DNA of 64,000 nucleotides, taken from the NCBI GenBank assembly GCA_000165345.1, contig CM000432.1:352001-416000 (forward strand). The letters run 5' to 3'. The position numbers and the translations under genes were made by a program. Below, in pieces: positions 2,933 to 57,584 of the stretch. The notes under the pieces are model-generated. The model had not been told where the DNA came from and did not search any database. It saw only the letters and a list, made by a program, of their open reading frames with translations. The first letter of the stretch is position 1. Every line of letters begins with the position of its first letter.

Positions 2933-3024
2933 TCAATATATCTATATATATATCTATATCTATTTATATCTATATATATATATATATATATAGATATATA
3001 TATATATATATATTTAATATATAT
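2933..3024. repeat. Compound microsatellite (TATC/TA)n
   Basis: Direct reading: tatctatatatatatctatatctattt...(ta)n. Confidence 0.9.
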
Positions 3025-3707
3025 GATCCTTTTCAAACTAGTTTTTGTTCATAATTCACTCTGATAGTAGTAATTATTAGTATTATTATTAAAATGTAAT
3101 TGTCTGTCAGTTCTCGTATATTAAATTGTTACAAACAATAACACAAGTAATAAGACTGATAGTATTTGTACTTAATTGCAATGATGACTCTAATATAATA
3201 TAAATAAATTTAATTAATTAATTTCTTTAAATTCTCTTTAAATACGACGAGTGCAATTTTAAAGATACGTATATTAATCTTTTAAGTTCCTTTTTATCCT
3301 CTCCAAAGAGTAATTTTTGCAAAAAAAAGCAAAGAAATTAAAAAATGTAAAAAGAGCTAATTTTTTTCGTTTTAAAGGAAAGGATTTGTTTTAATGATAA
3401 CAAGTTTTTGAGAAAGAAAATTCTAAAGAATAGAAGCTAAATCTAATTTATAACAATCCACATTAAAATTAATTAATTAAAAACCCCATCTTTTATTTAA
3501 AACTAACCCTAATCTATATAAATTAGACAATTAAGTAGCTTTACCTTTATTTCTATTACTATTTATTTTTTTTAATATTTATTTCCCCACAACTTAATTG
3601 TCCATTAAATTCAAATTGCAGTACCGGCATTCCCGCCATTTCCCGCCAAGTCAAATAATATTATAAGAGACGAGTATTTCAAGGCAAAAAAAAATTATTA
3701 AAAAAAA

Positions 3708-8872: not shown

Positions 8873-8897
8873 CGGTACCATTTTTGGCGCCAAAACG
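8873..8897. promoter_or_regulatory. Composite CGGTACC plus perfect E2F palindrome TTTTTGGCGCCAAAACG
   Basis: About 70 bp upstream of the TAP42-like start, in the divergent promoter shared with the methyltransferase. A near-identical composite occurs at 25017-25038. Confidence 0.6.
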
Positions 8898-14900: not shown

Positions 14901-15326
14901 TTATCCACAACATTTTTTACATGGGTATCTTTTAGATACTGATGGTTTGTAAGTTGATAAATGACTAAAGTGTGGATTTAAATGGCTATTAGAATTAGCG
15001 CTCATCCAACTTAATTTACTCTTCTTTTTCTGTTTATTCTCTTCTTTTTGATCCTCCTCTAAACTACTTTCGTTTTTTGAATTAGCGCTAGTATATTCAC
15101 TTATATCTTTCTCCCAAACCTTTATTTGATTTTCTCTGATTTTTCTCATTCTCATATCATTCAACTGTTTAGCTTTTTCTTGTTTTCTTTTATTGAAATA
15201 ATAACTTCCAAAACCTATTAACATTACTAATTTCAAAAGAAATAAGATATATAAAGCTTTAGATAATAATTCAGAGCCTAATTTCTCTGTAATTACTGTG
15301 TGTAAAGTTTCTATTTTCTCCTTCAT
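14901..15326 (-). CDS. Hypothetical small membrane protein (141 aa) ending ...CKKCCG
   Basis: ORF convergent with the previous gene across a 56-bp spacer. One TM segment. Weak support only. Confidence 0.4.
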   Translation of the reverse strand: MKEKIETLHTVITEKLGSELLSKALYILFLLKLVMLIGFGSYYFNKRKQEKAKQLNDMRMRKIRENQIKVWEKDISEYTSANSKNESSLEEDQKEENKQKKKSKLSWMSANSNSHLNPHFSHLSTYKPSVSKRYPCKKCCG

Positions 15327-15938
15327 TTCTATTAGATCATTTCTTCAAGTTTGTATTTTAATTTATTCCTATATTATTATGATGGAGCCCGCGCAATTGT
15401 TTTGCATGAATAATTTTTTTTTTTCAGTTTAAAAAAATAATAATTTACAAAAAATCTAAAAATTCAGTATTTATTTGACTTTCAAGGGAAATAAGATGAA
15501 TGTCTTTTCTAATAATAAATAATTAAGAATAAAAACATAATTCATTTTCCTTTAAACTATTTTTTAACCTCTCCTTCCCCCCCTCCTCATTTTACTATTT
15601 TTCGATACCTGTGTGCTCATAAGTTAATTCTCCTCTTCACCCCCACCCCCCATGAATAATTTTTCTAAAACTAATAAAAAAAATTGACATGCAAATTGCG
15701 CACTATATATTTATGAATTCAAAAATTATTTGAATTCACACTGTTTATATATTAATCTATTGATAATTTACATATTATTTAAGCTTTCGTATACATATTT
15801 CTTATTCAAAATTCTTAAAAAAAAAAGAACATTTATCCATTTTACTTGTATTCTAGTAATTATTTCCATTAAATATTATTTTCATGATCAATCGCCGGCG
15901 CCAAATATGAGACTGCGCCAATACCCTTATGGATAGTG

Positions 15939-15958
15939 CCCGCCTGAATTAAAGCGGG
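15939..15958. promoter_or_regulatory. Inverted CCCGCC...GCGGG element (CCCGCCTGAATTAAAGCGGG) next to the GGCGCC cluster at 15893-15922
   Basis: GC-rich motifs (CGCCGGCGCCAAAT, CTGCGCCAAT) sit in the divergent promoter upstream of the V-ATPase gene. C-rich G-box complements lie at 15540-15655. Confidence 0.45.
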
Positions 15959-16525: not shown

Positions 16526-19255
16526 ATGGGTATATTAAGGTCGGAATCTATGTCCCATGGGACTCTGGTCCTTCCAAATGACCGAGCAAGAGAATATATT
16601 GATATACTCGGAAGAGAAGTAAATTTGCAATTTGTAGATATGAATTCAATTACAATGAATCGACAATATAAAAAGTATATTCAAAGAATCGATGAAATGG
16701 AACGTATACTTCGTGTACTATTTTCTGAGATTGAGAAACTCCCAGATGTGAAAGTATTAAAAGGGAATTATGAGAATTTTTTGGATCATGATCATGTTTA
16801 TCAATTAGATAAAGTAGAAGAATCTCTTCAAAGTTTATATGGCCAATTTATCAGTTTTAGAGATAATAATGCAGATTTAATCCACCAAAAAAGTTCTGCA
16901 ATTGAGGAATGCGCTGTAGCAAAAGCAGCAAGCCTTTCATTTGCTCCAATATCAATGTACAACAATGAAAGATCAAATAGTGACTTTTACATGACAAACG
17001 CAGTGGAAAGAGGGGAGGGTGGAATGCATGGAGGAAATCCCACACCATCATCTCCTTTAATGAATCCAGGTATTATGGATGGAATTAATAATGTTTCCGG
17101 ATTTGGAGATATGATGTTCAGTAGTATTGCTGGAGTGGTGAAACATGAAGATCAAGAGAAATTTGCTAGAGCTCTTTTTAGAGCCACAAGAGGTAACACA
17201 TTTACCCATTTCCAATCAATAGCTGAGAATATTATGGATCCAAAAACAAGTAAAGATGTTCAGAAGGTAGTTTTTGTAATTTACTTCCAAGGTGCAACAA
17301 CTTCAGCAGTTTATGATAAGATTAGTAGAATTTGTGATGCATTCAATGTATCGATTTATCCTTGGCCATCAAGCTATGAACATGCAATTCAAAGAATTAG
17401 TGAACTTAATACTTTAATCCAAGATAAGGAAAAAGCACTTCAAGCTTATGAACAATATATCACTCTTGAGATTGAGACTTTACTTCAACCAGTTAACTCA
17501 AATAATGGAAACTCATTAATAGAGGAATGGAGATTATTTTGCATTAAGGAGAAATCCATTTATGCAACATTGAACTTATTTGAAGGGTCAGATATAACAC
17601 TAAGAGCTGATTGTTGGTATCCAACAGAAGAGGAGGAAAAGATTAGAAAGATTTTGATAGCTGAAAGTAGCACTCAGCATGTTGGAGCATTTTTACTGAC
17701 TAATACATCAAGTGGAGGTCATGGAGTAGCTGGAATCCATATTTCAGAAGGTGGCTCACATGATGATGAGGCAAATATATCCAACACACCTCCAACATAT
17801 ATTAAGACTAACGATTTTACTGTTGCATTCCAGGACTTTGTAAATTCTTATGGTATTCCAAGATACCAAGAAGTGAATCCAGCTTTATTCACTTTAGTTT
17901 CATTCCCATTCCTTTTTGGTATTATGTATGGTGATGTAGGTCATGGTTTCATAGTTTTCTTGATTGGTTTGGTTTTAGTTTTGAATTATGGAAAACTTAA
18001 AAAGATTAACGATGAAAATATGAAGATTTTAGTTTCTGGTAGATATATGATTACAATGATGGGTTTCTTTGCGACTTATTGTGGATTAATTTACAATGAT
18101 TTCTTCGCTGCTGGTTTGGATATATTTGGATCCAGATACACCCTATCTCATGATAAATTACCGGATGGAAGTCACGTATTTTTACCAAATAACAATTCCA
18201 CTTCAGCTTCTTTTCCATATCCATTTGGATTTGATCCAGTTTGGAAAGGAGCTGTTAATGAAATGTCATTTTTGAATAGTTTCAAGATGAAATTCTCAGT
18301 TATTATTGCCTTCTTCCAGATGACTCTTGGTGTAATACTTAAAGGTTTTAATAACTTGTACTTTAAAAATTATGTTGATTTCTTTATGGAGTTCATTCCT
18401 CAATTTATTTTTATGGTCGGATTTATTGGATATCTTAACTTTTTAATCTTCTTTAAATGGTTAACTCCAATTGAAGGATATAATAAGCCTTCTATTTTGA
18501 ATGCATTAATTGGATTACAAAGTTCTTTATTTGGAGCTGATATTCCACTTAGTGATAGATTTTATCTATCTCAACCTGTCGTACAGAAATATATTACATT
18601 GGCCTTATTAATTTCTGTACCTTGGATGTTCTTCCCTAAACCACTTTATCTTATTTACAAGAGCAGAAAACAAAAGAAAGCTAGTGAGGAAGAATCTAGG
18701 ATCAGACAACAACATCTCTCATCATACTCATCTGTCTCAAGTAGATTCACATCTTTCACTAATAGCTCTAAGAAGATAAGCAGATCCAAGAGTAATCTTC
18801 TTTCTGAGGATGATCATAATCTCATTGGTCATGAAGTAGAAGAATCATCTGGTCACTCTGATCCAACTGAGATTTTTATTCATCAACTTATTGAAACTGT
18901 TGAATTCCTTATTGGTTCAATTTCCAATACTGCATCATACCTCCGTCTTTGGGCACTTTCTCTTGCACACAATATGCTTGCATTGGTAGCTCTCCAGTTT
19001 ACTATTATGAAGGCCTTAAACTCAAAACTCCTTATTGTTAAAGTTGTTCAACTATTTAATTTATTCTTCATGTTCTTTGCATTCACTTCATTTATCATGA
19101 TTCTCATGGACTCATTGGAATGCTTCTTACATGGCCTTCGTCTACAATGGGTAGAATTCCAAAACAAGTTTTATAAGGGAGATGGTATTCTTTTTGCCCC
19201 TCTTAACCATATGAGAATTATCTTAGAAACTGAAGAGTTATTAAACTCATCTTAA
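16526..19255 (+). CDS. V-type H+-ATPase subunit a (V0 116-kDa subunit)
   Basis: 909 aa. The N-terminus aligns to Vph1/ATP6V0A (LRSE.M....L.....A.E....LG.....QF.D.N) and the C-terminal multi-TM domain is conserved. Confidence 0.92.
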   Translation: MGILRSESMSHGTLVLPNDRAREYIDILGREVNLQFVDMNSITMNRQYKKYIQRIDEMERILRVLFSEIEKLPDVKVLKGNYENFLDHDHVYQLDKVEESLQSLYGQFISFRDNNADLIHQKSSAIEECAVAKAASLSFAPISMYNNERSNSDFYMTNAVERGEGGMHGGNPTPSSPLMNPGIMDGINNVSGFGDMMFSSIAGVVKHEDQEKFARALFRATRGNTFTHFQSIAENIMDPKTSKDVQKVVFVIYFQGATTSAVYDKISRICDAFNVSIYPWPSSYEHAIQRISELNTLIQDKEKALQAYEQYITLEIETLLQPVNSNNGNSLIEEWRLFCIKEKSIYATLNLFEGSDITLRADCWYPTEEEEKIRKILIAESSTQHVGAFLLTNTSSGGHGVAGIHISEGGSHDDEANISNTPPTYIKTNDFTVAFQDFVNSYGIPRYQEVNPALFTLVSFPFLFGIMYGDVGHGFIVFLIGLVLVLNYGKLKKINDENMKILVSGRYMITMMGFFATYCGLIYNDFFAAGLDIFGSRYTLSHDKLPDGSHVFLPNNNSTSASFPYPFGFDPVWKGAVNEMSFLNSFKMKFSVIIAFFQMTLGVILKGFNNLYFKNYVDFFMEFIPQFIFMVGFIGYLNFLIFFKWLTPIEGYNKPSILNALIGLQSSLFGADIPLSDRFYLSQPVVQKYITLALLISVPWMFFPKPLYLIYKSRKQKKASEEESRIRQQHLSSYSSVSSRFTSFTNSSKKISRSKSNLLSEDDHNLIGHEVEESSGHSDPTEIFIHQLIETVEFLIGSISNTASYLRLWALSLAHNMLALVALQFTIMKALNSKLLIVKVVQLFNLFFMFFAFTSFIMILMDSLECFLHGLRLQWVEFQNKFYKGDGILFAPLNHMRIILETEELLNSS

Positions 19256-25016: not shown

Positions 25017-25038
25017 GTTTGGCGCCAAAACGGGTACC
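25017..25038. promoter_or_regulatory. E2F palindrome TTTGGCGCCAAAACG plus GGTACCG
   Basis: About 300 bp upstream of the corrected primase start and about 170 bp upstream of the 25206 gene. Its reverse complement, CGGTACCCGTTTTGGCGCCAAA, matches 8873-8897. Confidence 0.6.
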
Positions 25039-25745: not shown

Positions 25746-26504
25746 CTATAGGTAAAATATAACATAATGTAGAATAACTATAAGAATATTTAATGGATTT
25801 ATTTGAGGCCAAAGAGTTTTAACAAAATAAATTCTTGTATTGTGACAAACTTGATAAATTAAAAAATCAGAAAGACGTGTTTCCCCTGAAGTTCTTATCA
25901 ATATATTAGGAAATGGTATTTCAGGATTATATATAAAAGATTTAAATTTTTCATCAGAAAGAGTAATATCTTGAATTTGGTTAATATTATTAGAATTAAC
26001 ATTTTTATAATTTTCAAGATACTTTTTTGATGCCATTTCTAATTCTGCTGTCCATGAATAAGCACAACAAATATTAAGAACAATTCCATTATTTTCTTTT
26101 GTTTTAAGTTCTAAATCTTTTAAAGTATCTAATAATTCTTTTGGAAGCATTTCAATTTTCCCAGAAATAACAACTTTAGAATTCTTTTCATTTAACCAAT
26201 TTCCTTCTTTTAAAATATAATCCTTAATTACATTAAATGTATCATCTACATTTTCTTGATTTCTAGAAAAATTCTCCATTGAAAAAACAAACATTGAAAT
26301 ATATTTTACTTTTAGCTTTATAAATAGTGGTAATATTTTCTTTATTAAAAGTGCACCTTGTTTATGTCCTTCTAACTGTGATATTCCCATTGCTTTTGCA
26401 TATCTCCTATTTCCATCTAATATTATTGCTACATGATTGATCTTAAATATGCTTAAAAAACGAGTTAACACTATTTCTAATACTCTTTTTATTAATGATA
26501 TCAT
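25746..26504 (-). CDS. cis-Prenyltransferase (undecaprenyl/dehydrodolichyl diphosphate synthase family)
   Basis: HVAIILDGNRRYAK...GH..G... and ...FVFSMENFSRNQENV motifs of the UPP-synthase family. Confidence 0.85.
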   Translation of the reverse strand: MISLIKRVLEIVLTRFLSIFKINHVAIILDGNRRYAKAMGISQLEGHKQGALLIKKILPLFIKLKVKYISMFVFSMENFSRNQENVDDTFNVIKDYILKEGNWLNEKNSKVVISGKIEMLPKELLDTLKDLELKTKENNGIVLNICCAYSWTAELEMASKKYLENYKNVNSNNINQIQDITLSDEKFKSFIYNPEIPFPNILIRTSGETRLSDFLIYQVCHNTRIYFVKTLWPQINPLNILIVILHYVIFYL

Positions 26505-26806
26505 TTTAATTAATTTCTTGATAATTTATTAAGATGTTTAATTCACTTCACTATTACATAATATTACTTTACTATAAAAAGATAATAAAAGAAAGGAAAA
26601 AGAATAAATAAACATTTATATTATTTGTTTTACCTCCCCCTCAAATCCTCGACTTGTTAAAAAAAATATATATATATATATATATATATACAATTTTTTT
26701 TTTTTAAATTAATACCATCTACTATCTCAAATATAATAAACTATTGCATTATTGACATAAATAATCTGATAAAGTCAGATGCCCGCGCGCGGCACAGCGC
26801 ATGTAT

Positions 26807-32374: not shown

Positions 32375-32474
32375 NNNNNNNNNNNNNNNNNNNNNNNNNN
32401 NNNNNNNNNNNNNNNNNNNNNNNNNNNNNNNNNNNNNNNNNNNNNNNNNNNNNNNNNNNNNNNNNNNNNNNNNN
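32375..32474. other. Assembly gap (100 N)
   Basis: Run of n characters. The track ORFs 32292-32564 and 32347-32535 are artefacts spanning it. Confidence 0.99.
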
Positions 32475-45562: not shown

Positions 45563-48500
45563 ATGATTACTTCCGAGGGTAATCACAATAATTCAATTAA
45601 TTCAGAATCCCTACAAAATGGGAACCTTAACCAAACAGATTCAGTAATGCAAGGTTTCCCCACAAATTCAAACATAAATTCTGAAGGTATCTCTAATCTG
45701 GGAGAGGGGCTTGACACTTCAAACACTGGAGAAAGTCTTAATAAAAAGCCTAGAATGGATGAGCAAATTGGGATAGGTTTGAGCAATGAAATAACCTCTA
45801 ATTGTTCAAATTTCGATCAGAATAATAACTCACAATATACATCAGCAATAGAAACATCTGCATCAGTAGTGCCAGGATCTATAGAATCTACAAATCAACA
45901 AAATATAAGTACTGTAGATGCCTCTTCATCTTTGGCAGTTTCTTCAAATTCCGGAGTTGATTCAACACAGACTCAAGAAGCTCCCCCAGAGCCTCCCAAG
46001 AAGAGAGGAAGAGGACGTCCAAGAATTAATAGAGAAGCTTTGGCAGCAGCAGCTGCTGCTGCTGCTGCAAATAATGCAGCAAGCAGCACTATCCAAAATA
46101 ATAATATTATTCAGAGAGAACCAAGTACAAGGAGAAAAGGAGCTGGTCTCGGAAGTTTGATAGCAGCGGAGGTAAACTCCAGAAGATCTTTTGCAGATGA
46201 CGATGATGATGATGATGAAGATTTTGAAGATGGAGATTTACGTGCAGATGGTGAGAACACTGATAATGATGATGGTGAAGAGTTACCTCAAAGATTTGTA
46301 TTAACTCCAATTGTTGAGAAGTTTCTTAAAAGACGTCCTCAAATGAAGCATAAAGAGAAGGAAGGCGCTGAGCACGATAAAGCAAAAAACGCACATTCAA
46401 CTGGAGATACAGTAGTAGCTGGAGGTGCTGAAGAGAGAGATTCAGCCTCACCATCAATCAAAAGAAGAGTATTACACACCAATACAAGCCAGAGGCGCAT
46501 TCCAAGAGGAAAGATTCCCTATGAATACCTTGTAAAATATCATCATCAGAGCTATTCTCAATGCAAATGGATAAGTGAGGACGATATAGATAACGATCCT
46601 GATCCAAAAGTCAGAATAAAATATCTCAGGTATATACAGAGACTAGAACAAAGAGGTGTTGAGGGGATAGATGCTACCGCATATATTGAAGATGTCCCAG
46701 AATTGCAATATATTGATGGAGATATTGAGAGAATTGTTGATTGTACAGACGTTTTCAGATCATTATATCCAATGAAAGCAGCAGAGATTGGTAGAAATGA
46801 ATGGTACATCTATTGTCTAAAGATTATTGACGCTTTGGTATGCTTTGATAGGAAAGGGGTAAAGTATGGTATTCCATTTTTGCGTCCTGTAGACCCGAAT
46901 ATGGATGGGGCTTCTGATTATTATTCAGTGATTTCTCGTCCGATGGATTTTACTACAGTACAGACAAAGCTTTATTTACGTATATATTCTCAACCTCAAG
47001 AATTTTGGAGTGATGTTCAACAGATCTTTACGAATTGCTTCCATTATAACTCTGTAGATAGTGATATCTATGTTCAGGGGAAGTTACTAAAAGCTCTTTT
47101 TGATAAGTTATATGGAGAATGGGCTTTACTCTCCAGACAAACTCAGGAGGATCTGGTTAAACAGAAGAGTGAAGAATCTCCAAAAGAATGGCTTGATGAT
47201 CAGACAGTTACTATAGAAACTGCAATCCAACATGTAACATTCAGAGATTTACTTGCCTTACCTAAGAGACCAATTATGTACTTTGCAAAATGGAAACATC
47301 TTTCATTTGCTGATAATACTTGGGAACACGAGGTCGATATTACAGATAGTAGTAAGATTCTCCAGTTCCATCGTTTCGTTAGAGTTCCAGAATATATCAC
47401 AACAGCTCATAATGGGCCAGCAGCCATAGCTTATGACCTTTATAAGCGAATGATTTCTGAAACTTATACCTATATTAGACATACATTTTCATGGATGAAT
47501 AACCAATTTGGAATGAAACTAATAGCTCCTCAGGCACCAGCCTATATTACTCCAAATAGTGGAGGCGGAAATAACCAAGATTCTGATGATTCTGATGATG
47601 ATAATCATGTTCCATATGCTACAAAGAAGAAATCTAAGAATAGATATTCTATTAGAACATATGTACCAACAACATTCTCCAATCTCCCACAGTTAACTAG
47701 TGCAATTTCTATTTATGGCCATCACCATAGTAACCACCAACCTCAACAAAATAGAAGTAATTATGGACAAAGACAGCAAAATTATGGAGGCCATCAGAAT
47801 CTACAAAGGCAATTTCCAAGCCAGAATTTGGGTAATTCCTCATCTTCCTCAAATATGGCTCAAATAAACAAGATTATTGATAGCAGCATTTTGGACGAAA
47901 TTAAAGTTAGCTCTGATGGAACCATGAACAAGAATGCCATAGCTGCAACTCAAAAACTATTACAGATGATCACAACAAACAATTCAAATGCAGCTAATGC
48001 CTTGAGTATGGCAATGAATAACCCAGCAGTTGCTGGACTTGTTGGAAAACTTCTACAGAATATAAATCAAAATAACTCGCAAACCCAAGCTAAGAGCGAG
48101 CCGGAAAACGCTCAATCATTATCTACCTCTACTACTGGATGTTCTTCTTCAGCACAAGTTTTACCAAATAACTCTTCCAACACTATGGTTGATAAACTTT
48201 CTGTTTCAAATAGCATTACAAATAATACATGCAGCATAAATAATAACATTGTTCATTCTGGAATAACCTCTGAATCCTCTACATGTTTCAATAATGGCAA
48301 TATGGTTATTGCACCAAACCAAGGAGAAGCTTCAGGCCAACACATAGACTCTGGAAACTATAACACCGAAAGTAACATGCCAATGCAATCTTTCTCAAAC
48401 CACGATCACAAACATGAGCAGTGGGGTGGCTCAAATATTAGGGATAATAATAGTAATAACAATTCAGTAATCAATAGTGATATCTCTACAAATCTATGCA

Positions 48501-51500
48501 AGAATCCAAACCCTGGATTTATGGAGTCTAACTCTCAAATGAAGATAGACAATTTTGACTATAAAATTTCGATTGATCAAATGGGTAACAACACTTCTAA
48601 TAACAATCAAAGTAATCATACAAATTACGTGTCAAATGTGATGGGTGGTAACCACACACACCAAGAAAGTTTGGCGCCAGATTGCGTGGAGGAGAATATA
48701 AATAGAGGAGAAGCATATATAATAAGAGATGATAGCTTAGTAGGAAATCCAGGCGCTGATAATTCGGGAGTTGGGATAAGTAGAGAAGGAATTTTAAGCT
48801 TTGGACAAGGTGGTGCAATCGATCAGGGGGAAGACATGATTATAAACCAGAAGGAGAATTATAATATGGTGTCGAGTACAATGACTGACCATCACGATGG
48901 AAATGGTTGTGACAGTATGACAAAGACAATTAATGATACAGATTTGTTTTTCAATGTGAATACGGATAATCCAGATGTAATTAAGTGTATGCCTCCAACT
49001 GATGACTCAAATGTTCCATTATGCGATGGAGAAGTTAAGCTTAGCAATGAGAGTTTGGAGTTGATGGTTTTCAAAAATATTGAGATACCCTCCAGTATGG
49101 AGCTTTATGATAAACTAGAGTTAGAGGAATTCTGTGGGATAGTGTCTCTGGAGAATGACTATCAATCTGATGGGAACGAAGAAATTCTCTCATATAGAAT
49201 TCTGGATAATGTACAAGACTTTTGCGATGGTATGGTTTATAAGGAAGATACTGGGAATGTAACAAAAGTCGATGATACTAATGCTTTAATTCAAGCAAAA
49301 GCTGAAGGAGTCTCTGTGGTGGGAGATATGTCTTCAAGTGTCGATCAAGCACAAGTTAAGATTGATGAAAATGAAAAAGATTTGAAAAACGTATCAGAGC
49401 TCAAAGATGAAACAAATGGTGAGAATATTGTAACTGAAAATACAAACCATCCAATGGGTCTTGCTAGTTTGCTTGCAAATAATAAGATTGCAGAACTTTA
49501 CTGCAACCAGAAACGCCCTCCCCCGCCTCCTCCAGGAGTTTCCCGACATTATCCAGTCTCCCCAATTTTCAAAAATGGATACCAACTTTTTGATTACCAA
49601 TTAGCAGGTCTAAACTGGCTTCTACAACTTTGGTCAGAAGGAAGAAATGGTATATTGGCAGACGAAATGGGTTTGGGAAAGACAATGCAAACAATGTCAT
49701 TCGTTTGGCATTTAGTTTACAAGGAGAAACTTAGGGGTCCTTTTCTGGTTGTTGCTCCACTTTCTACTCTAGATCACTGGAAACGAACTTTTGAAGATTG
49801 GACTGATCTAAATGTGGTTTCATATTATGATGAGGGTGGTAGAAATGGACGAGATTTGCTTCGTCATTATGAGTTTTACCATCAATGCCTTCAATTTGAT
49901 ATGAGAGGAAGGGGAAGAAGTAGTAGCTATAATAGTTTTGGTGGGAATATTAAACATTATGGCTATTCTAACGAACCTCGTCTAGTTCAGACTCAACATT
50001 ATAAGTTCCATGTTTTACTTACTTCATATGAAATTCTCCTTGCAGACGCTGATATTTTATGCACAATGCCCTGGCAGTTTGTAATTATAGACGAAGCTCA
50101 CAGACTAAAAAATAGAGGCGCCAAAACTCTACAAGTCTTTAAGAGTATTGCATGCAGACATATTCTTTTACTTTCCGGAACTCCTGTCCAAAATAACACA
50201 GAGGAGCTTTGGCCTCTACTTAATTATATTGAGCCTATTAAATTCGCAAGTATTGAGGCCTTTACTCAAGAATTTGGAGAACTTCAAACAAGTGGTCAGG
50301 TCTCTGCTCTACACGAACTTTTACGCCCACATCTACTCAGAAGAGTCAAAGAAGACGTTATGAAGGAAATTCCTCCTTTAGAGGAGACAATTATTGATGT
50401 TGAACTTACTACTGCTCAGAAAGCTTATTATAGAGCTATCTTCGAGAGAAACCGTGCTTTCTTGTGCAAAAATGTGGGATTAGGCGGGAAAAGGTCAGGA
50501 AGCAATGCACCAATACCCTCTTTAATGAATGTTGAAGTAGAGTTGAGGAAATGTTGTAATCATCCTTTCCAGGTTGTTGGAGTAGAAGAGAGAGAAGTTG
50601 CTTTATGTAAGACTTCAGAAGAAAGGTATAAGAAAATGATAGAATTGAGTGGAAAGATGGTATTAATGGGTAAACTTTTACCAAAGCTTAAAGCAGAAGG
50701 ACATAGAGTGCTAATATTTAGTCAATTTATTCAAACTTTGACTTTATTAGAGGAGTTAGTGGAACATCATGGATGGGGATATGAAAGACTTGATGGTAGT
50801 ATTCGTGGTACTGACAGGAATGCAGCAATTACAAGATTTAATGCAGAAGACTCTGACAAATTTGTATTTTTACTTTCAACTAGAGCTGGAGGTTTAGGAA
50901 TCAATTTAACATCTGCCGACACTGTAATTATTTTTGATTCTGATTGGAACCCACAAAATGATGTTCAAGCCTGTGCTAGAGCGCATAGAATTGGACAAAC
51001 AAGAGATGTTAAAGTTTATAGATTGATAACAGCAAGAACATATGAAGCTGAAATGTTCGAAAGAGCTGGTAGGAAATTAGGACTGAATACTGCAGTGTTT
51101 CATAAAGGAGCATTTAGAGAGGAGAATAATTCTAATACTGTCAATGGTATTGGTACAAGTGGTGAGCCAACAAAACAAGAAATTGAAGATTTGCTTAAAC
51201 ATGGAGCTTATTATCTATTAGAAGGTAGTGAGGCTTCAAGGCAATTCCAAGAAAGTGATATAGATGAGATTTTGAGTAAAAATTCTCGTCTTGTTAGATA
51301 TCAATTAAGTGGAAAGAATTCTTCATTTAGTAAAACAAGCTTTAGAAGTGATAATGCACTTCCTGATTTGGATGTTAATGACCCAGATTTTTGGAAGAAA
51401 GTATTAGGAGATAGCAGTGTTTCATCATTCCTAGTCCAGCTACAAAGTGGAAGTGCTATTAGGGATGATGAAAGTAGGGAAAAGTTTATTCAGGATCTTG

Positions 51501-52375
51501 CTGATGCAGTTGATGGTGCAGCAGCTTTAGATAGTTTGGATCCACTAATTGAAGCTTTGGTCCAAGTTACAAATATGAGAGAGTTTTCTGAGCTACAGCG
51601 TCAAAAGGCTGAAGATTTACTTGCTAATGTTCAGGATATTGTTAAGACTTTGCAGCCAAATAATGAGAATATTGATGAAAATGATGAAGATAACTTGGAG
51701 ACTGATGGTAGAAGTAAGTCCCGTAAAAAATCAAGAAGAGCTACCAGAGCTAAAGAGTTTACAATTGATAACTATGTTCTTGATGAATATATTGATGGGG
51801 AAATGGAAGATTCTATGAATGGTCCAGGAAACCACGTCGATGGAAGAGGTAGGAAATCGAAAGGAAAGAAAGGTGGAGGAAGAAAAAGCAATGCTTCAGC
51901 TTCAGGAAAGTTTAATAATTATGATATTTCTGATGAAGACGATGATGATTTAAATGATGAATCGTTTGAACCTGTTAAACCAACAAAATCTAGAGAGAGA
52001 AAAGGTACTGGGAGAGGGGGAAGAGCTAATTCATCTAAAACTTCTTCAAATAATGCAACAGGAGGTAATAATAGTAGTGGCGAACAAGATGGTAATCAAA
52101 ATTTTGCAGAAACATCAGTAGACGGAACGAATACTCTGTCAAATGGAGCAAGACAATCAAAGAAGAGAAAGTCAACGAACTCTAATAATCTAAATACTGG
52201 AGATGATATACTGGAAGAGAAGGAACAAACTTCCAATAATTCTCCTGCTAATAATACTGTAGCAAAACGAAGAAATAGAAGAGATTCTGCTGCTGCTATG
52301 CTTGCATTACTTACTGCAAAAATTGCAAAAGATGAAGATGAAGATGAAGATGAAGCTGATGAGGATGAATTATAA
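45563..52375 (+). CDS. SNF2-family chromatin-remodeling ATPase with AT-hook, bromodomain and helicase domains (2270 aa)
   Basis: AT-hook KKRGRGRPRI. Bromodomain ...YYSVISRPMDFTTVQTKL...EFWSDVQQIFTNCFHYN. SNF2_N LFDYQLAGLNWLLQLW..GILADEMGLGKTMQT and DEAHRLKN. Helicase_C ...STRAGGLGINLTSADTVIIFDSDWNPQNDVQACARAHRIGQ. Confidence 0.9.
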   Translation: MITSEGNHNNSINSESLQNGNLNQTDSVMQGFPTNSNINSEGISNLGEGLDTSNTGESLNKKPRMDEQIGIGLSNEITSNCSNFDQNNNSQYTSAIETSASVVPGSIESTNQQNISTVDASSSLAVSSNSGVDSTQTQEAPPEPPKKRGRGRPRINREALAAAAAAAAANNAASSTIQNNNIIQREPSTRRKGAGLGSLIAAEVNSRRSFADDDDDDDEDFEDGDLRADGENTDNDDGEELPQRFVLTPIVEKFLKRRPQMKHKEKEGAEHDKAKNAHSTGDTVVAGGAEERDSASPSIKRRVLHTNTSQRRIPRGKIPYEYLVKYHHQSYSQCKWISEDDIDNDPDPKVRIKYLRYIQRLEQRGVEGIDATAYIEDVPELQYIDGDIERIVDCTDVFRSLYPMKAAEIGRNEWYIYCLKIIDALVCFDRKGVKYGIPFLRPVDPNMDGASDYYSVISRPMDFTTVQTKLYLRIYSQPQEFWSDVQQIFTNCFHYNSVDSDIYVQGKLLKALFDKLYGEWALLSRQTQEDLVKQKSEESPKEWLDDQTVTIETAIQHVTFRDLLALPKRPIMYFAKWKHLSFADNTWEHEVDITDSSKILQFHRFVRVPEYITTAHNGPAAIAYDLYKRMISETYTYIRHTFSWMNNQFGMKLIAPQAPAYITPNSGGGNNQDSDDSDDDNHVPYATKKKSKNRYSIRTYVPTTFSNLPQLTSAISIYGHHHSNHQPQQNRSNYGQRQQNYGGHQNLQRQFPSQNLGNSSSSSNMAQINKIIDSSILDEIKVSSDGTMNKNAIAATQKLLQMITTNNSNAANALSMAMNNPAVAGLVGKLLQNINQNNSQTQAKSEPENAQSLSTSTTGCSSSAQVLPNNSSNTMVDKLSVSNSITNNTCSINNNIVHSGITSESSTCFNNGNMVIAPNQGEASGQHIDSGNYNTESNMPMQSFSNHDHKHEQWGGSNIRDNNSNNNSVINSDISTNLCKNPNPGFMESNSQMKIDNFDYKISIDQMGNNTSNNNQSNHTNYVSNVMGGNHTHQESLAPDCVEENINRGEAYIIRDDSLVGNPGADNSGVGISREGILSFGQGGAIDQGEDMIINQKENYNMVSSTMTDHHDGNGCDSMTKTINDTDLFFNVNTDNPDVIKCMPPTDDSNVPLCDGEVKLSNESLELMVFKNIEIPSSMELYDKLELEEFCGIVSLENDYQSDGNEEILSYRILDNVQDFCDGMVYKEDTGNVTKVDDTNALIQAKAEGVSVVGDMSSSVDQAQVKIDENEKDLKNVSELKDETNGENIVTENTNHPMGLASLLANNKIAELYCNQKRPPPPPPGVSRHYPVSPIFKNGYQLFDYQLAGLNWLLQLWSEGRNGILADEMGLGKTMQTMSFVWHLVYKEKLRGPFLVVAPLSTLDHWKRTFEDWTDLNVVSYYDEGGRNGRDLLRHYEFYHQCLQFDMRGRGRSSSYNSFGGNIKHYGYSNEPRLVQTQHYKFHVLLTSYEILLADADILCTMPWQFVIIDEAHRLKNRGAKTLQVFKSIACRHILLLSGTPVQNNTEELWPLLNYIEPIKFASIEAFTQEFGELQTSGQVSALHELLRPHLLRRVKEDVMKEIPPLEETIIDVELTTAQKAYYRAIFERNRAFLCKNVGLGGKRSGSNAPIPSLMNVEVELRKCCNHPFQVVGVEEREVALCKTSEERYKKMIELSGKMVLMGKLLPKLKAEGHRVLIFSQFIQTLTLLEELVEHHGWGYERLDGSIRGTDRNAAITRFNAEDSDKFVFLLSTRAGGLGINLTSADTVIIFDSDWNPQNDVQACARAHRIGQTRDVKVYRLITARTYEAEMFERAGRKLGLNTAVFHKGAFREENNSNTVNGIGTSGEPTKQEIEDLLKHGAYYLLEGSEASRQFQESDIDEILSKNSRLVRYQLSGKNSSFSKTSFRSDNALPDLDVNDPDFWKKVLGDSSVSSFLVQLQSGSAIRDDESREKFIQDLADAVDGAAALDSLDPLIEALVQVTNMREFSELQRQKAEDLLANVQDIVKTLQPNNENIDENDEDNLETDGRSKSRKKSRRATRAKEFTIDNYVLDEYIDGEMEDSMNGPGNHVDGRGRKSKGKKGGGRKSNASASGKFNNYDISDEDDDDLNDESFEPVKPTKSRERKGTGRGGRANSSKTSSNNATGGNNSSGEQDGNQNFAETSVDGTNTLSNGARQSKKRKSTNSNNLNTGDDILEEKEQTSNNSPANNTVAKRRNRRDSAAAMLALLTAKIAKDEDEDEDEADEDEL

Positions 52376-53100: not shown

Positions 53101-53137
53101 TGACGTCAGTTTTTTACCCGCCACACGTGTGGCGGGT
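53101..53137. promoter_or_regulatory. CRE palindrome TGACGTCA plus a 22-bp perfect palindrome ACCCGCCACACGTGTGGCGGGT (CACGTG core)
   Basis: Two perfect palindromes within 37 bp, about 460 bp upstream of the 53598 gene. Confidence 0.5.
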
Positions 53138-53597
53138 CATAAGTAACAGATTGAATTGAAAATACATGTATAATGTGGGGAAAAAATAAGAAAGAAAAAT
53201 AACATATTTTGTAATAAGGAAAAGAAAGAAAAAATAAGGTAATAAGGGAATATAATTGCGAAGATAAATGTGTATTAATAGATGATAAGTTTGTTATTTG
53301 CAGAGATTAAATAATAAAGAGAAAATAATTTGAGCAGTAATTTAGTGAAGATTAATTGAAAGGACTGAAGATAAATAAGGTTTATTAACCTTTTATTTTT
53401 CTTCCCTTATTCTCTTTCATCTTACGAAATAAAGGTGACAATTTTTTTTTTGATTAATAAAGTGGAATAAAGTATATTAAACGTGAAAACGTATTAAGTA
53501 AAAAATAAGGGATTAAACGACTAATATATAATCAGAAACTTCCAATAATTAAACAAAAAACAGAAAATTAAAAAATTTTTAATAAATAATTAATGAA

Positions 53598-56500
53598 ATG
53601 GAACAAGAAAATACAAAAACTTTGAATACAATCAATAGCACGCCAATTAGAAATGGTAATTTGTCATCAAAGGATGTGAACTTGGAAACACCAAATAAAA
53701 GTTCATCAAGAAGTATTGGCAGTGCAGGTGGAAGTTCATCAGTTAGACGTAGTAGTAGATTATTGAAAAAAAATGATGAAAAATCCGGAGGAACTGGACC
53801 TTTAACTCCTCAACTGGGTGCACCAGGAGGAACACCATATCTGTTGAGATCAAAATCAAGAGAAACATTATCATCAACAGAAGCAAATTTAAGGAAGAAT
53901 GCAATGACCATGCCACCATTGAATTTGAAATCAACCAATGATTTGGAAGGAAGTAGTGAGTTCTATCAGACCAATGTAGAAACAAATAATGAAAATAGTA
54001 ATAAGGTTGGAGATGTATATAATATATATTCGACTCCAAGAAAGAGAGTTAGAGGTACTGAAAATGGCTTCAATAGTAGTAACAATAATAATAATATCAA
54101 TACTGGATTAGATTTGGATAGAGATCCAGGCTCTGAAAGCCAGATAAGAAGCTCATCAAGAAGAAAAGGAAATATAAAGAATACGCCTGTGAGCAAAAGT
54201 AGAAGAGTAATTGATGAAGACTCTGCTGTTAAAGATAGGAAGAGTATATTAAAACAGTACGATCCTGATGGTATTAATACATCAACTATGAATATAAAGA
54301 CCCCTAAATCTCAGAAGAAGGTTCAGTTTGGTACAAAAAATTTGATAATAATAGACGAAAATAAACAAGATTTGAATATTGATAAATTGATTACAGAGAG
54401 TGATAATGATGAAAATGGTAATATTCAAGACAAAAGATTTGCGGATGATCTGACAGTTGATAGAATGAGTATATTAAGTGAGCTTGATGATGCTGGTACT
54501 GGTCAGATATATAATTTCCCATCATTGGAGGAATTGATAAATACAAAAAAGACTGAAAATACTTCAACACAAAAAGTTTATAACAATGATATTGTTGATA
54601 GTGAAATTTCTAATCGATTTGCAACTGTTAATAATATTCATAATTATCATCATCGTGAAAATAACCAAGATAATAAAGCAACCAATCCAAGTGATTTATT
54701 CATCCAAAATGAAAATTCTGGAAAAGATAAATCTATAACTGATCAAGATGGAATTATTGATTGCAATGATCAGAAAAATCTTGATAGTGAGTATATTAAA
54801 ACAAATCGTAATCAAGTTCAAGATGAAAATAATATAGAGAAGAATATTGAATTGACTGATCAGATTAATATATCTGATTATTCAATAAATTGTAGAGATT
54901 CAATAGCTCCAAATTTGCCTGGAGCATTTTTATCAGTAGTTATGCAAAATTTATCTTCTGTAAATTTTCCAGAAGAAAAAAAACCAGAATCAGATGAAGA
55001 TATTAAAATTCCTAAATTAGAATTTAATGATGATAACATTGAAGATACTATAAATAAGAAGAATGATTTAGATCAAGATGTTAGTCTTAAAGAACAGAAA
55101 CCTGATCAAGAACCAACTATGGAAAATCAATCAGTATTTGAAGACAATGAAATTTATATTGAGGCTAAGAAACAGATAAATAAGGAAGACGAAATTATAT
55201 TAGAAGAGAATAAAGAAGATATTCAAAATCAACAAGAACAGGTACAATTTGAATTTGAAAGTGAAAATGTAGAGAATCAAATTCAAGAACAATTGATCAG
55301 AGAAGAAAATAAAGAATTTACTACAGTAGAAATAGTTACAGAAAAAGAATCGATTAATGAGAAAAATCATATTGAAGAGAGTTTGTGTCATCAAAATGAT
55401 AATTTTGAGACCCAACAAATAGTTTTAACAGAAACTTTAACAATCTTGAAAGATAATAACAATAGACTGTCAAATATTTTAATTACTCCAAAAAGAAATA
55501 ATATTAGCAGCATTGGATACATTAATAAGTTATCCCCATCATCTGAAACACTTTTAAAATCATTGAATAATACAAAATCTATTTTGAATATTACACCACA
55601 AGGTTATACATGGGAGGAATTTCAATCAATTTTGAATTTGAATTATACAATGGAAAATTATTTTGGTATTTTGGAATTTGATGAAATTGAAAACAATCAT
55701 CAAATCAAGGATAAATATATTGAAGAAGAAAGTATGGATAGTAAGTTATTATTAGTACATATACAAAATATTTTAAAAGATGATGGAAATTCTGAGAAAA
55801 TTCAAGAAATAGTGGCTAAGTACTCATCTGAAATTATTAATTCAATAAAACATCAAATTTGGGATGAAATAGAAAAGAATATATTAATTAAAGAGTTTAA
55901 TGGTGAAAGTCATGAAAGATATAGTGAAAATCTATCAAAATTCTCAACTAGTGAAATAGCAACATTAATGGCAATTATTGTGAATAAAAGTAGATATGGA
56001 AATAAAAATGATGAAAAAATAAAGAATGAGTTATTTGAGAGAATATCTGGATACTTTTTTGGAGAAGGTAGAAATATTTTTCTTAAAAAAGCTATAATAG
56101 ATTGGAAAGAAAAAGTAATTTTTCCATTAAAGAATTCAATAATTAATAAATTTGAAGAAATGATCAAGATATTTATGTTAAAAAATGAACAAATTATGAA
56201 TAATAAGAATAGAATTCAGAATTCAAAAGTATTATTATCAACTTTAGAATCTTGTAAGATTTCTGAGATGCATGTATATGAAACTTATTGGAATGCAATG
56301 AGAATTGTACATGAAAATATTGTTAATTATAAAGAGGAAATTGAAAGAGTTAAGAATTATTTAAATATGATGGATAAGAAAAAGAGAAATATTTCAAGAT
56401 TATTATTAAAAGAAGAAGAATTGTATAATAGTTTAATAATGGAATTAAATGATTGGAAAGTAAAAAAAGATAGTTTAAGAAATAATTTAAATGATTTACG

Positions 56501-57584
56501 AATAAAAGAAGAATTTGCTGGATTTACATGGGATTTATTTACAATTAATAAATTTCAAACAATTATAATATTAAATAATAATTGTCATAATCGTAATAAT
56601 CTAGTTAAAGTAAAAGTATCTATTGAATGGAATATGAATGATGATATAATGGATAATCCACCAATTATTTTAAAGATTGAATTATTATTGGATAATATAA
56701 TATTAATAGATGATTCATCTTCATCAATTAATTCAAAATATAATGATCTACAATTACAATTATCTTTGGTTAATAATCAAAGATTAGAAGATAAGATTTA
56801 TAATGCATATATTAAAGTAATTGAAAGGACATTAAATTTAAGATTAATAGAATTATATTTAGATTATAAGAAAAAAAATAAAATGAATAATAATATACTG
56901 ATTGAATTAATAAGAGGAATATTCCAAAGTTGTATTGTATTATTATGGAGATTAGAATCAATAGTATTTGAGATATTGAATATAATTAAAGTTTTTAACT
57001 TGGCAATTTTAGATATTATTGATGAAAATAAATTAATTTTAAATATTCCAATATTAGTTGGAATTAATGGAAAAAATGATATTGAAATAAATAATAATAA
57101 AAATGAAAATCAAAATTCTAATTTTACTTATTCTTCATGTACTTCAAATTCTCCAATAGCAGCATCTCCAATTACTCCAAATTCATTAACATCAAGTACC
57201 CTTTCTCCTCATTTATTAATGGCATCAAGACCAGTAATAACTATTACATTTAATATCACCAATTCACTTTTTATGTCTGTAGGGACCTTAGTGAATTCAA
57301 TTGAAGATATTTCAGTATATAATATGAGTGATGAAATTACTAAAGATATGATTTGTGTTTTCAAAGATCAGATCAATGAAATTGAGGGAAAGGTTAGCAA
57401 TAATAATAATAATATTAAAAAAAATTCTGCTGTATATGTTGGTTATAATTGTTTACTGTCAGTAATACAAAATACAATACAAGAAGGTGGACATAATCAG
57501 TTAATATGGAAAAGACCGTTAGAAAAATTTGCTCCAAGATTGCTGAATGCTGTCCAAATTAGTAAATTACATCAGAATTTCTGA
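53598..57584 (+). CDS. Hypothetical large protein (1328 aa) with S/T-P-rich N-terminus and N/I/K-rich low-complexity C-half
   Basis: Long uninterrupted ORF. No family recognised. Confidence 0.65.
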   Translation: MEQENTKTLNTINSTPIRNGNLSSKDVNLETPNKSSSRSIGSAGGSSSVRRSSRLLKKNDEKSGGTGPLTPQLGAPGGTPYLLRSKSRETLSSTEANLRKNAMTMPPLNLKSTNDLEGSSEFYQTNVETNNENSNKVGDVYNIYSTPRKRVRGTENGFNSSNNNNNINTGLDLDRDPGSESQIRSSSRRKGNIKNTPVSKSRRVIDEDSAVKDRKSILKQYDPDGINTSTMNIKTPKSQKKVQFGTKNLIIIDENKQDLNIDKLITESDNDENGNIQDKRFADDLTVDRMSILSELDDAGTGQIYNFPSLEELINTKKTENTSTQKVYNNDIVDSEISNRFATVNNIHNYHHRENNQDNKATNPSDLFIQNENSGKDKSITDQDGIIDCNDQKNLDSEYIKTNRNQVQDENNIEKNIELTDQINISDYSINCRDSIAPNLPGAFLSVVMQNLSSVNFPEEKKPESDEDIKIPKLEFNDDNIEDTINKKNDLDQDVSLKEQKPDQEPTMENQSVFEDNEIYIEAKKQINKEDEIILEENKEDIQNQQEQVQFEFESENVENQIQEQLIREENKEFTTVEIVTEKESINEKNHIEESLCHQNDNFETQQIVLTETLTILKDNNNRLSNILITPKRNNISSIGYINKLSPSSETLLKSLNNTKSILNITPQGYTWEEFQSILNLNYTMENYFGILEFDEIENNHQIKDKYIEEESMDSKLLLVHIQNILKDDGNSEKIQEIVAKYSSEIINSIKHQIWDEIEKNILIKEFNGESHERYSENLSKFSTSEIATLMAIIVNKSRYGNKNDEKIKNELFERISGYFFGEGRNIFLKKAIIDWKEKVIFPLKNSIINKFEEMIKIFMLKNEQIMNNKNRIQNSKVLLSTLESCKISEMHVYETYWNAMRIVHENIVNYKEEIERVKNYLNMMDKKKRNISRLLLKEEELYNSLIMELNDWKVKKDSLRNNLNDLRIKEEFAGFTWDLFTINKFQTIIILNNNCHNRNNLVKVKVSIEWNMNDDIMDNPPIILKIELLLDNIILIDDSSSSINSKYNDLQLQLSLVNNQRLEDKIYNAYIKVIERTLNLRLIELYLDYKKKNKMNNNILIELIRGIFQSCIVLLWRLESIVFEILNIIKVFNLAILDIIDENKLILNIPILVGINGKNDIEINNNKNENQNSNFTYSSCTSNSPIAASPITPNSLTSSTLSPHLLMASRPVITITFNITNSLFMSVGTLVNSIEDISVYNMSDEITKDMICVFKDQINEIEGKVSNNNNNIKKNSAVYVGYNCLLSVIQNTIQEGGHNQLIWKRPLEKFAPRLLNAVQISKLHQNF

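Follow-up and report, generated by a model that had tools for sequence, protein, structure and literature searches.

Head-to-head E2F-like cores as the probable centre of a conserved promoter module upstream of cgd4_1600 in Cryptosporidium parvum

Upstream of cgd4_1600 on Cryptosporidium parvum chromosome 4, a perfect 22-nt palindrome is probably the core of a conserved promoter module in which two E2F cores stand head-to-head and would be bound by E2F/DP. A probability of about 0.6 was given to this reading, which was drawn from sequence comparison. The functional unit is best read as the head-to-head GGCGGG hexamers (CCCGCC-N7/8-GGCGGG) and not as the 22-mer as such. Most likely, the element represents an unusual arrangement of a known regulatory site: no description of the paired arrangement was met with in the searchable literature, while the E2F-like motif 4 core, GGCGGG, was already known.

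The window, which is the whole 64-kb stretch of DNA analysed, originated from C. parvum chromosome 4 and had a G+C content of 27.0% overall, 30.0% in coding DNA and 22.6% in the remainder when ATG-started ORFs of at least 100 aa were used as the coding mask. The ORF at 53598-57584 on the plus strand showed 100% identity with the C. parvum Iowa II protein P0001, which carries the UniRef name Spc7 kinetochore-domain-containing. The ORFs at 45563-52375 and 40508-43543 were a chromo/bromo/SNF2 helicase (CHD/SNF2) and Spb1, respectively. In the supplement of PMC3734150 the SNF2 helicase is cgd4_1590, Spb1 is cgd4_1580 and the next gene is cgd4_1600, and the Spc7-like ORF was named cgd4_1600 because of these neighbours. 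The palindrome is located in the 1.2-kb intergenic region between the same-strand genes cgd4_1590 and cgd4_1600, 741 nt past the stop codon of the former and 461 nt upstream of the ATG of the latter. The features of this region, with conservation given for the seven intestinal-clade species compared below, were:

53101 to 53108, unstranded: perfect CRE-type octamer TGACGTCA, sole copy in the window.
53116 to 53137, unstranded: perfect 22-nt palindrome ACCCGCCACACGTGTGGCGGGT, with arms CCCGCC (53117-53122) and GGCGGG (53131-53136) and spacer ACACGTGT.
53164 to 53169, plus strand: ACATGT, matching the published AP2_1-like motif 7 (ACATGY); CATGTA is kept there in all seven species.
53173 to 53180, plus strand: ATGTGGGG, matching the published G-box motif 2 (DTGTGGGG); exact in six of seven species, with ATGTGGGT in the seventh, a species from a Logan assembly (locus L004).
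53286 to 53592, plus strand: ATG-free leader of 307 nt, putative 5'UTR of cgd4_1600.
53598 to 57584, plus strand: cgd4_1600, coding for a kinetochore-like protein of 1328 aa with an Spc7 domain; presumably the gene under regulation.

Other observations in the window included a 100-N run at 32375-32474, presumably an assembly gap in the source record, and a divergent pair of tRNA-Pro genes approximately 550 nt apart, at 35545-35617 on the minus strand and 36166-36238 on the plus strand, with anticodons AGG and TGG by ARAGORN and Rfam. Long (TA)n microsatellites were present in many intergenic regions (2965-3013, 26666-26690, 37337-37378, 43585-43602 and 45373-45392). A perfect 20-nt palindrome, GCAGCAGCAGCTGCTGCTGC, at 46043-46062 within the cgd4_1590 coding region was a GCA/GCT codon-repeat junction.

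All sequences quoted in an earlier sequence-only reading of this DNA (TGACGTCA, ACCCGCCACACGTGTGGCGGGT, CCCGCCTGAATTAAAGCGGG, CCCGCCTTGATTGAGCGGG and CCGCGCGCGG) were verified at their coordinates, including the perfect symmetry of ACCCGCCACACGTGTGGCGGGT over the 22 nt at 53116-53137, while the gap between the CRE and the palindrome, given there as 8 nt, was 7 nt. The non-randomness which that reading had claimed for these elements was borne out, as three inverted pairs of the pattern CCCGC-N6-12-GCGGG were seen in the window against 0.00 expected from 100 dinucleotide-preserving shuffles. With block shuffles of 300 bp, which preserve local composition, CCCGCC-N5-12-GGCGGG was observed 1, 2 and 0 times at 0, 1 and 2 mismatches and expected 0, 0.01 and 0.2 times, respectively; degenerate members with two mismatches were therefore absent from the 64-kb window. 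A perfect palindrome with at least 10 G/C was found in only 1 of 200 block shuffles. Neither the window nor any of the fetched loci had a pair in the opposite orientation, GCGGG...CCCGC. Apart from the promoter elements, the fetched loci matched CCCGC-N-GCGGG solely in copies of CCCGCCATTGCGGG (N4) in the coding region of the SNF2/CHD gene (L006 4715, L009 18972 and L010 19855), which showed protein-level conservation and were unrelated to the promoter elements.

Comparison with orthologous promoters, proposed in the sequence-only reading as a check, was carried out at the Spc7 loci of C. meleagridis, chipmunk genotype I, C. canis, L004, C. felis, C. ryanae and C. muris, where C. parvum and the first six belong to the intestinal clade and C. 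muris was the sole gastric-clade species sampled. The pair CCCGCC-N7/8-GGCGGG was kept at the same place, 450-760 nt upstream of the Spc7 ATG, in all seven intestinal-clade species. Its arms were identical throughout, even where Spc7 protein identity fell to 45% and most of the intergenic DNA was no longer alignable, which established the inverted arms as a real constrained feature. In C. muris the intergenic region was short (336 nt) and lacked the inverted pair, and a single TTTTGGCGG followed by GCATGC and GTGGGG started approximately 100 nt upstream of the Spc7 ATG. The combination of motif types is thus older than the pairing, since C. muris has the motif types without the pair.

The spacer between the arms showed a different pattern. 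Parvum, meleagridis and chipmunk I had ACACGTGT, canis had ACATAAAC, L004 had ATAATTAT, felis had ATACGTAT and ryanae had the 7-nt ACATGGA. The CACGTG that had been taken as an E-box/G-box core was limited to the parvum, meleagridis and chipmunk I clade; in its place canis had CATAAA, L004 had TAATTA, felis had TACGTA and ryanae had CATGGA as part of its 7-nt spacer. Since these four species, which are more distant, lack it, the CACGTG centre is not the constrained part, and CACGTG as a bHLH or bZIP site was rejected as unconserved in orthologous promoters. Judged from these alignments, the 22-nt symmetry with its CACGTG centre is a lineage-specific state of a variable spacer.

Perfect 20-nt dyads were nevertheless present in three lineages, each with a different spacer (ACACGTGT, ATACGTAT and ATAATTAT), and when placed on a neighbour-joining tree built from Spc7 proteins they required two or more paired substitutions that preserved the symmetry. 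Perfect dyads in three lineages thus point to paired symmetric substitutions, which two independent sites would not predict, and these may stem from a dimer that puts the inner flanks of both half-sites under selection. With odds only somewhat short of even, the symmetry by itself, as distinct from the arms, would instead be functionless. Quasi-palindrome correction is an established mutational mechanism, and template switching in a strong quasi-palindrome would perfect imperfect dyads. This agrees with the clade-specific CACGTG centre, with the lack of spacer symmetry in canis and ryanae despite intact arms, and with the asymmetric spacers at the two other loci of the window described below, although the tree is small and its two symmetric double changes, independent of each other, would fit selection on both half-sites equally well.

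The motifs flanking the palindrome were also compared. The CRE octamer TGACGTCA named in the sequence-only reading was kept in five of the seven species (parvum, meleagridis, chipmunk I, canis and L004) with diverged flanks and a fixed spacing of 6-7 nt to the left arm, and approximately 310 kb of window and loci contained only its orthologous copies. At the CRE position felis had TGACATGG and ryanae had nothing comparable. On this evidence from sequence, the CRE is constrained in part of the genus. On the 3' side of the palindrome, a block of CATGTA-N3-6-ATGTGGGG was kept in six of seven species and differed by one base in L004, and C. muris had GCATGCGTGGGG approximately 75 nt before the Spc7 ATG. 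In addition, CATGT(A) was observed 1-30 nt past GC-rich elements at several loci and species (15960, 26806 and 53164 in the window, L008 9588 and L009 9638; for example GCGGGAACATGTA, GCGCATGTA and GGCGGGTCATGT), and it may be a regular partner motif of the GC-rich elements (ACATGY, motif 7 of PMC3734150).

The 307-nt leader suggested a 5'UTR with a transcription start before 53286, as it lacked ATG entirely. This absence was matched by only 6 of 5000 shuffles, TGA occurred seven times and GAT five times in the same stretch, and the orthologous regions showed comparable ATG-poor stretches. The leader is silent on which side of the palindrome transcription starts, and the element could lie inside the transcript. 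A possible short 5'UTR intron of cgd4_1600 was noted at 53240-53305, from GTAATAAGG to TTATTTGCAG (GTAATA at 53240 to TTTGCAG at 53305). Two ATGs lie inside it, the sole ones from the G-box to the start codon, and conserved blocks inside it reach canis and L004; it was considered for placing the transcription start, and as a conserved feature it is a lead only, because the aligned position in C. meleagridis has no CAG. Out of frame and 5 nt ahead of the annotated start, a further ATG (53593-53600, ATGAAATGG) opens a 10-codon uORF which overlaps the cgd4_1600 start and was found at the same offset in six of seven species.

The sequence-only reading had placed the palindrome within a wider family of inverted pairs. 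Two further members and their neighbouring motifs were located:

37726 to 37744, unstranded: second member CCCGCCTTGATTGAGCGGG, CCCGCC-TTGATTG-AGCGGG, between divergent genes 36535-37110 (minus strand) and SART1 38135-39262 (plus strand).
37691 to 37702, minus strand: CCTGTCCCCCAA, minus-strand reading TTGGGGGACAGG (G-box-like), 24 nt from the second member; exact words common to canis, felis and ryanae, and collinear.
15939 to 15958, unstranded: third, weaker member CCCGCCTGAATTAAAGCGGG, CCCGCC-TGAATTAA-AGCGGG, between divergent genes 14901-15326 (minus strand) and V-ATPase subunit a 16526-19255 (plus strand).
15897 to 15920, unstranded: GGCGCCAAATATGAGACTGCGCCA, two E2F-like motif-3 cores directly 5' of the third member; GGCGCCA and CTGCGCCA are conserved in felis and ryanae.

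The family was upheld by conservation of the second member in canis (CCCGCCTTGATTGGGCGGG), felis (CCCGCCTTGATTAGGCGGG) and ryanae (CCCGCCTTTTTCAGGCGGG), where it lay 365-434 nt upstream of the SART1 ATG and was the sole CCCGC or GCGGG in those intergenic regions. The third member was partly conserved: ryanae had CCCGCC-N10-GGCGGG, and in the felis copy the left arm was degenerate (TGCCGC), while the right arm survived as GGCGGGAACATGT. The right arms at 37739 and 15953 were AGCGGG in parvum and GGCGGG in the orthologs. Both pairs were located roughly halfway along intergenic regions, 1.0 and 1.2 kb long, with divergent genes, an arrangement which fits bidirectional promoters. Spacers at both loci were asymmetric and the earlier description of AT-rich spacers of similar sequence did not hold, as spacers varied between loci and between species. 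Across the family they ranged from 7 to 10 nt, with 7-8 nt within the Spc7 and 37726 loci. A range of 7-10 nt is loose for a rigid protein dimer and counts against the reading as an E2F/DP-bound pair.

One element of a different kind, an all-GC palindrome, was also on record from the earlier reading:

26783 to 26792, unstranded: CCGCGCGCGG, which holds an E2F-like core [C/G]GCGC[G/C]; the prenyltransferase gene on the minus strand has its ATG at 26504, and the palindrome lies 279 nt upstream of it.

It gained a positional counterpart in C. felis, TGGCGCGCGCGCCA, located at the same place and 5 nt from a conserved CATGTATTTAATATAAAG, and nothing comparable was found at that place in C. ryanae. 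Palindromic canonical E2F-like sites of the motif 3 type were observed at 8882-8895 (TTTTGGCGCCAAAA) and 25018-25029 (TTTGGCGCCAAA); together with the 22-mer these were among the few intergenic perfect palindromes of at least 12 nt with at least 6 G/C. A direct repeat of the GGCGGG-type hexamer, CCCGCCATTTCCCGCC, was found at 3632-3647 with a 10-bp period, where the other strand reads GGCGGGAA in both copies, and a G-box was located at 3585, 47 nt away.

The label E2F-type, which the sequence-only reading had attached to the arms, agreed with published motifs. E2F-like motif 4, TTTGGCGGGAAV with the core GGCGGG, E2F-like motif 3 with the core [C/G]GCGC[G/C], G-box motif 2 (DTGTGGGG) and AP2_1-like motif 7 (ACATGY) are all over-represented upstream of C. 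parvum genes, and the G.GGGG core of motif 2 is bound by the AP2 domain of cgd8_810 (PMC3734150). In sporozoites, ATAC-seq peaks of open chromatin are dominated by E2F motifs, and bidirectional promoters make up over half the regulatory peaks (bioRxiv 10.1101/2025.01.17.633476). Both arms of the palindrome, at 53117 and 53131, carried the GGCGGG core of motif 4. GGCGGG-type hexamers in the window were intergenic in 9 of 11 cases (0.35 per kb, compared to 0.05 per kb in coding DNA), and the density of E2F-like hexamers generally was 7-10 times as high in intergenic DNA as in coding DNA, although intergenic G+C is lower. All four intergenic G-boxes of the window lay within 60 nt of an E2F-like motif. 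A search of the literature returned no description of the paired arrangement CCCGCC-N-GGCGGG in the searchable literature and nothing relevant on a CRE linked to Cryptosporidium or on cgd4_1600; bZIP was merely mentioned as a family present in Apicomplexa and Cryptosporidium.

Paired arms and single sites differed in their flanks. Intergenic GGCGGG that stands alone in the window read GGCGGGAA in five of five cases and paired arms did so in one of six (Fisher p about 0.013, hand calculation). Set against the T-rich 5' and AA(V) 3' flanks of motif 4, the paired arms departed from the published motif, being T/A-rich on the 5' side (TGT, TAT, ATT) with AA on the 3' side in one of six. Since the paired arms lack the AA 3' flank, the pair may be read differently or by another factor. 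It is accordingly conceivable, if unlikely, that a dimeric or two-domain sequence-specific factor other than canonical E2F/DP reads the repeat as one unit; the repeat would then be a distinct promoter element with no more than the GGCGGG core in common. Candidates are an ApiAP2 protein beyond those assayed so far, a zinc-finger protein of the C2H2 type and an atypical E2F. The missing GGCGGGAA flank, the strictly one-way orientation of the pairs, the narrow spacing of 7-8 nt within each of the two best-conserved loci and the symmetric inner-flank substitutions in three lineages all speak for such a factor. However, no AP2 domain in protein-binding microarrays is reported on GCGGG or CCCGC (PMC4117751), the C. 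muris Spc7 promoter has a single GGCGG only, and the third locus behaves like independent sites, with N10 in ryanae and, in felis, a decayed left arm beside a right arm kept as GGCGGGAA.

The inverted arms could also act as a folded nucleic acid, a reading judged quite improbable, more so than a different binding factor. This would be either a promoter DNA cruciform or an RNA stem-loop, with 6 bp of GC stem and a loop of 7-10 nt, that belongs to a long 5'UTR or to a transcript which is antisense or unannotated. The 22-mer had a predicted hairpin of -18.1 kcal/mol (z = -4.7) and most instances of the family ranged from -14 to -22.7 kcal/mol with z down to -5.8, so that the description of the elements as hairpin-capable stood thermodynamically, in terms of predicted folds. 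The stem was constant and the loop variable in length. In both parvum AGCGGG arms the exchange gives G.U wobbles in a minus-strand RNA, which folds better than the plus strand (-17.2 against -12.1 and -12.0 against -9.8 kcal/mol), and one C:G to U:A exchange was found at stem pair 8 between the parvum and the felis and L004 elements. A structural role found no support in covariation, which for the dyad as a helix across 11 instances was 0.089 compared to 0.088 in shuffles, 227 in 500 of them scoring as high or higher, and five dyad pairs never varied in this alignment. One stem sequence recurred at three unrelated loci and in all species, whereas structural stems usually evolve otherwise; at the V-ATPase locus felis lost the stem and kept GGCGGGAACATGT, and the element is surrounded by known DNA motifs. 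At the gathering threshold, Rfam matched only the two tRNA-Pro genes in the whole window. For the three intergenic regions nothing relevant was matched at E up to 1, with a spurious weak mir-297 match on a (TA)n run. A snRNA-type Sm site before the hairpin was considered and rejected because its T-run was not conserved, and the supplements of the lncRNA paper had no entry for the genes flanking the palindrome. Arms identical at three loci without covariation fit sequence-specific recognition better than a generic stem. The structural evidence thus favours sequence-specific recognition of double-stranded DNA, and an RNA or DNA hairpin role is unsupported.

Under the preferred reading of an E2F-core pair, each arm would be bound on double-stranded DNA by a putative E2F/DP heterodimer, and the pairing of the arms would allow cooperative or high-occupancy binding. 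The flanking sites TGACGTCA (possibly bZIP), CATGTA (AP2_1-like) and ATGTGGGG (G-box, AP2-type) would add further input, and the element would affect expression. A broader proposal is tentative and seems rather less likely true than false: CCCGCC-N7-10-GGCGGG would be a discrete, so far undescribed class of Cryptosporidium promoter element, which a dimer (a facing pair of E2F/DP heterodimers or an unknown factor) recognises as a single dyad. It would mark the middle of intergenic regions that are unusually long and often bidirectional, and in some lineages selection for dyad symmetry would reach into the spacer.

To our knowledge, Cryptosporidium is the only apicomplexan genus known to retain E2F/DP, and its regulatory sites are not yet validated. 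Functional validation is missing for most of the regulatory components (review PMC12246861). A dyad that is identical across species with Spc7 at 45% identity offers a short and precise probe for first binding and promoter-editing work. The dyad is also a simple pattern for genome scans and could split a promoter subclass, possibly cell-cycle or bidirectional, from single E2F-like sites. If it is merely two adjacent E2F sites, it would be an ordinary example of a known motif.

Among known systems, the adenovirus E2 early and mammalian E2F1 promoters carry inverted E2F site pairs, which are a known basis for cooperative E2F binding. The pair described here likewise consists of two inverted E2F cores in a promoter, with putative binding. 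In adenovirus E2 the T-tracts point outward (TTTCGCGC...GCGCGAAA) and the spacing is larger, whereas here the T/A-rich flanks point inward and the cores are 13-14 bp apart from centre to centre. The CRE is a bZIP (CREB/ATF) site, and TGACGTCA resembles it as a perfect octamer conserved in five species, with putative bZIP binding; it is lost in felis and ryanae. With C. parvum motif 4, TTTGGCGGGAAV (Oberstaller et al. 2013, PMC3734150), the element shares the GGCGGG core, the upstream and intergenic enrichment and the T/A-rich 5' run. Motif 4 is a single ungapped 12-mer, whereas here two cores are set head-to-head with 7-8 (up to 10) nt between them, and almost none of the paired arms has AA on the 3' side. 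Finally, the DTGTGGGG G-box adjoins the palindrome and is not part of it, and it differs from the unconserved CACGTG to which the name G-box had first been given. In its exact match, its conservation and its nearby E2F-like motifs, ATGTGGGG resembles the G.GGGG/DTGTGGGG G-box of the cgd8_810 AP2 domain (PMC3734150, PMC4117751).
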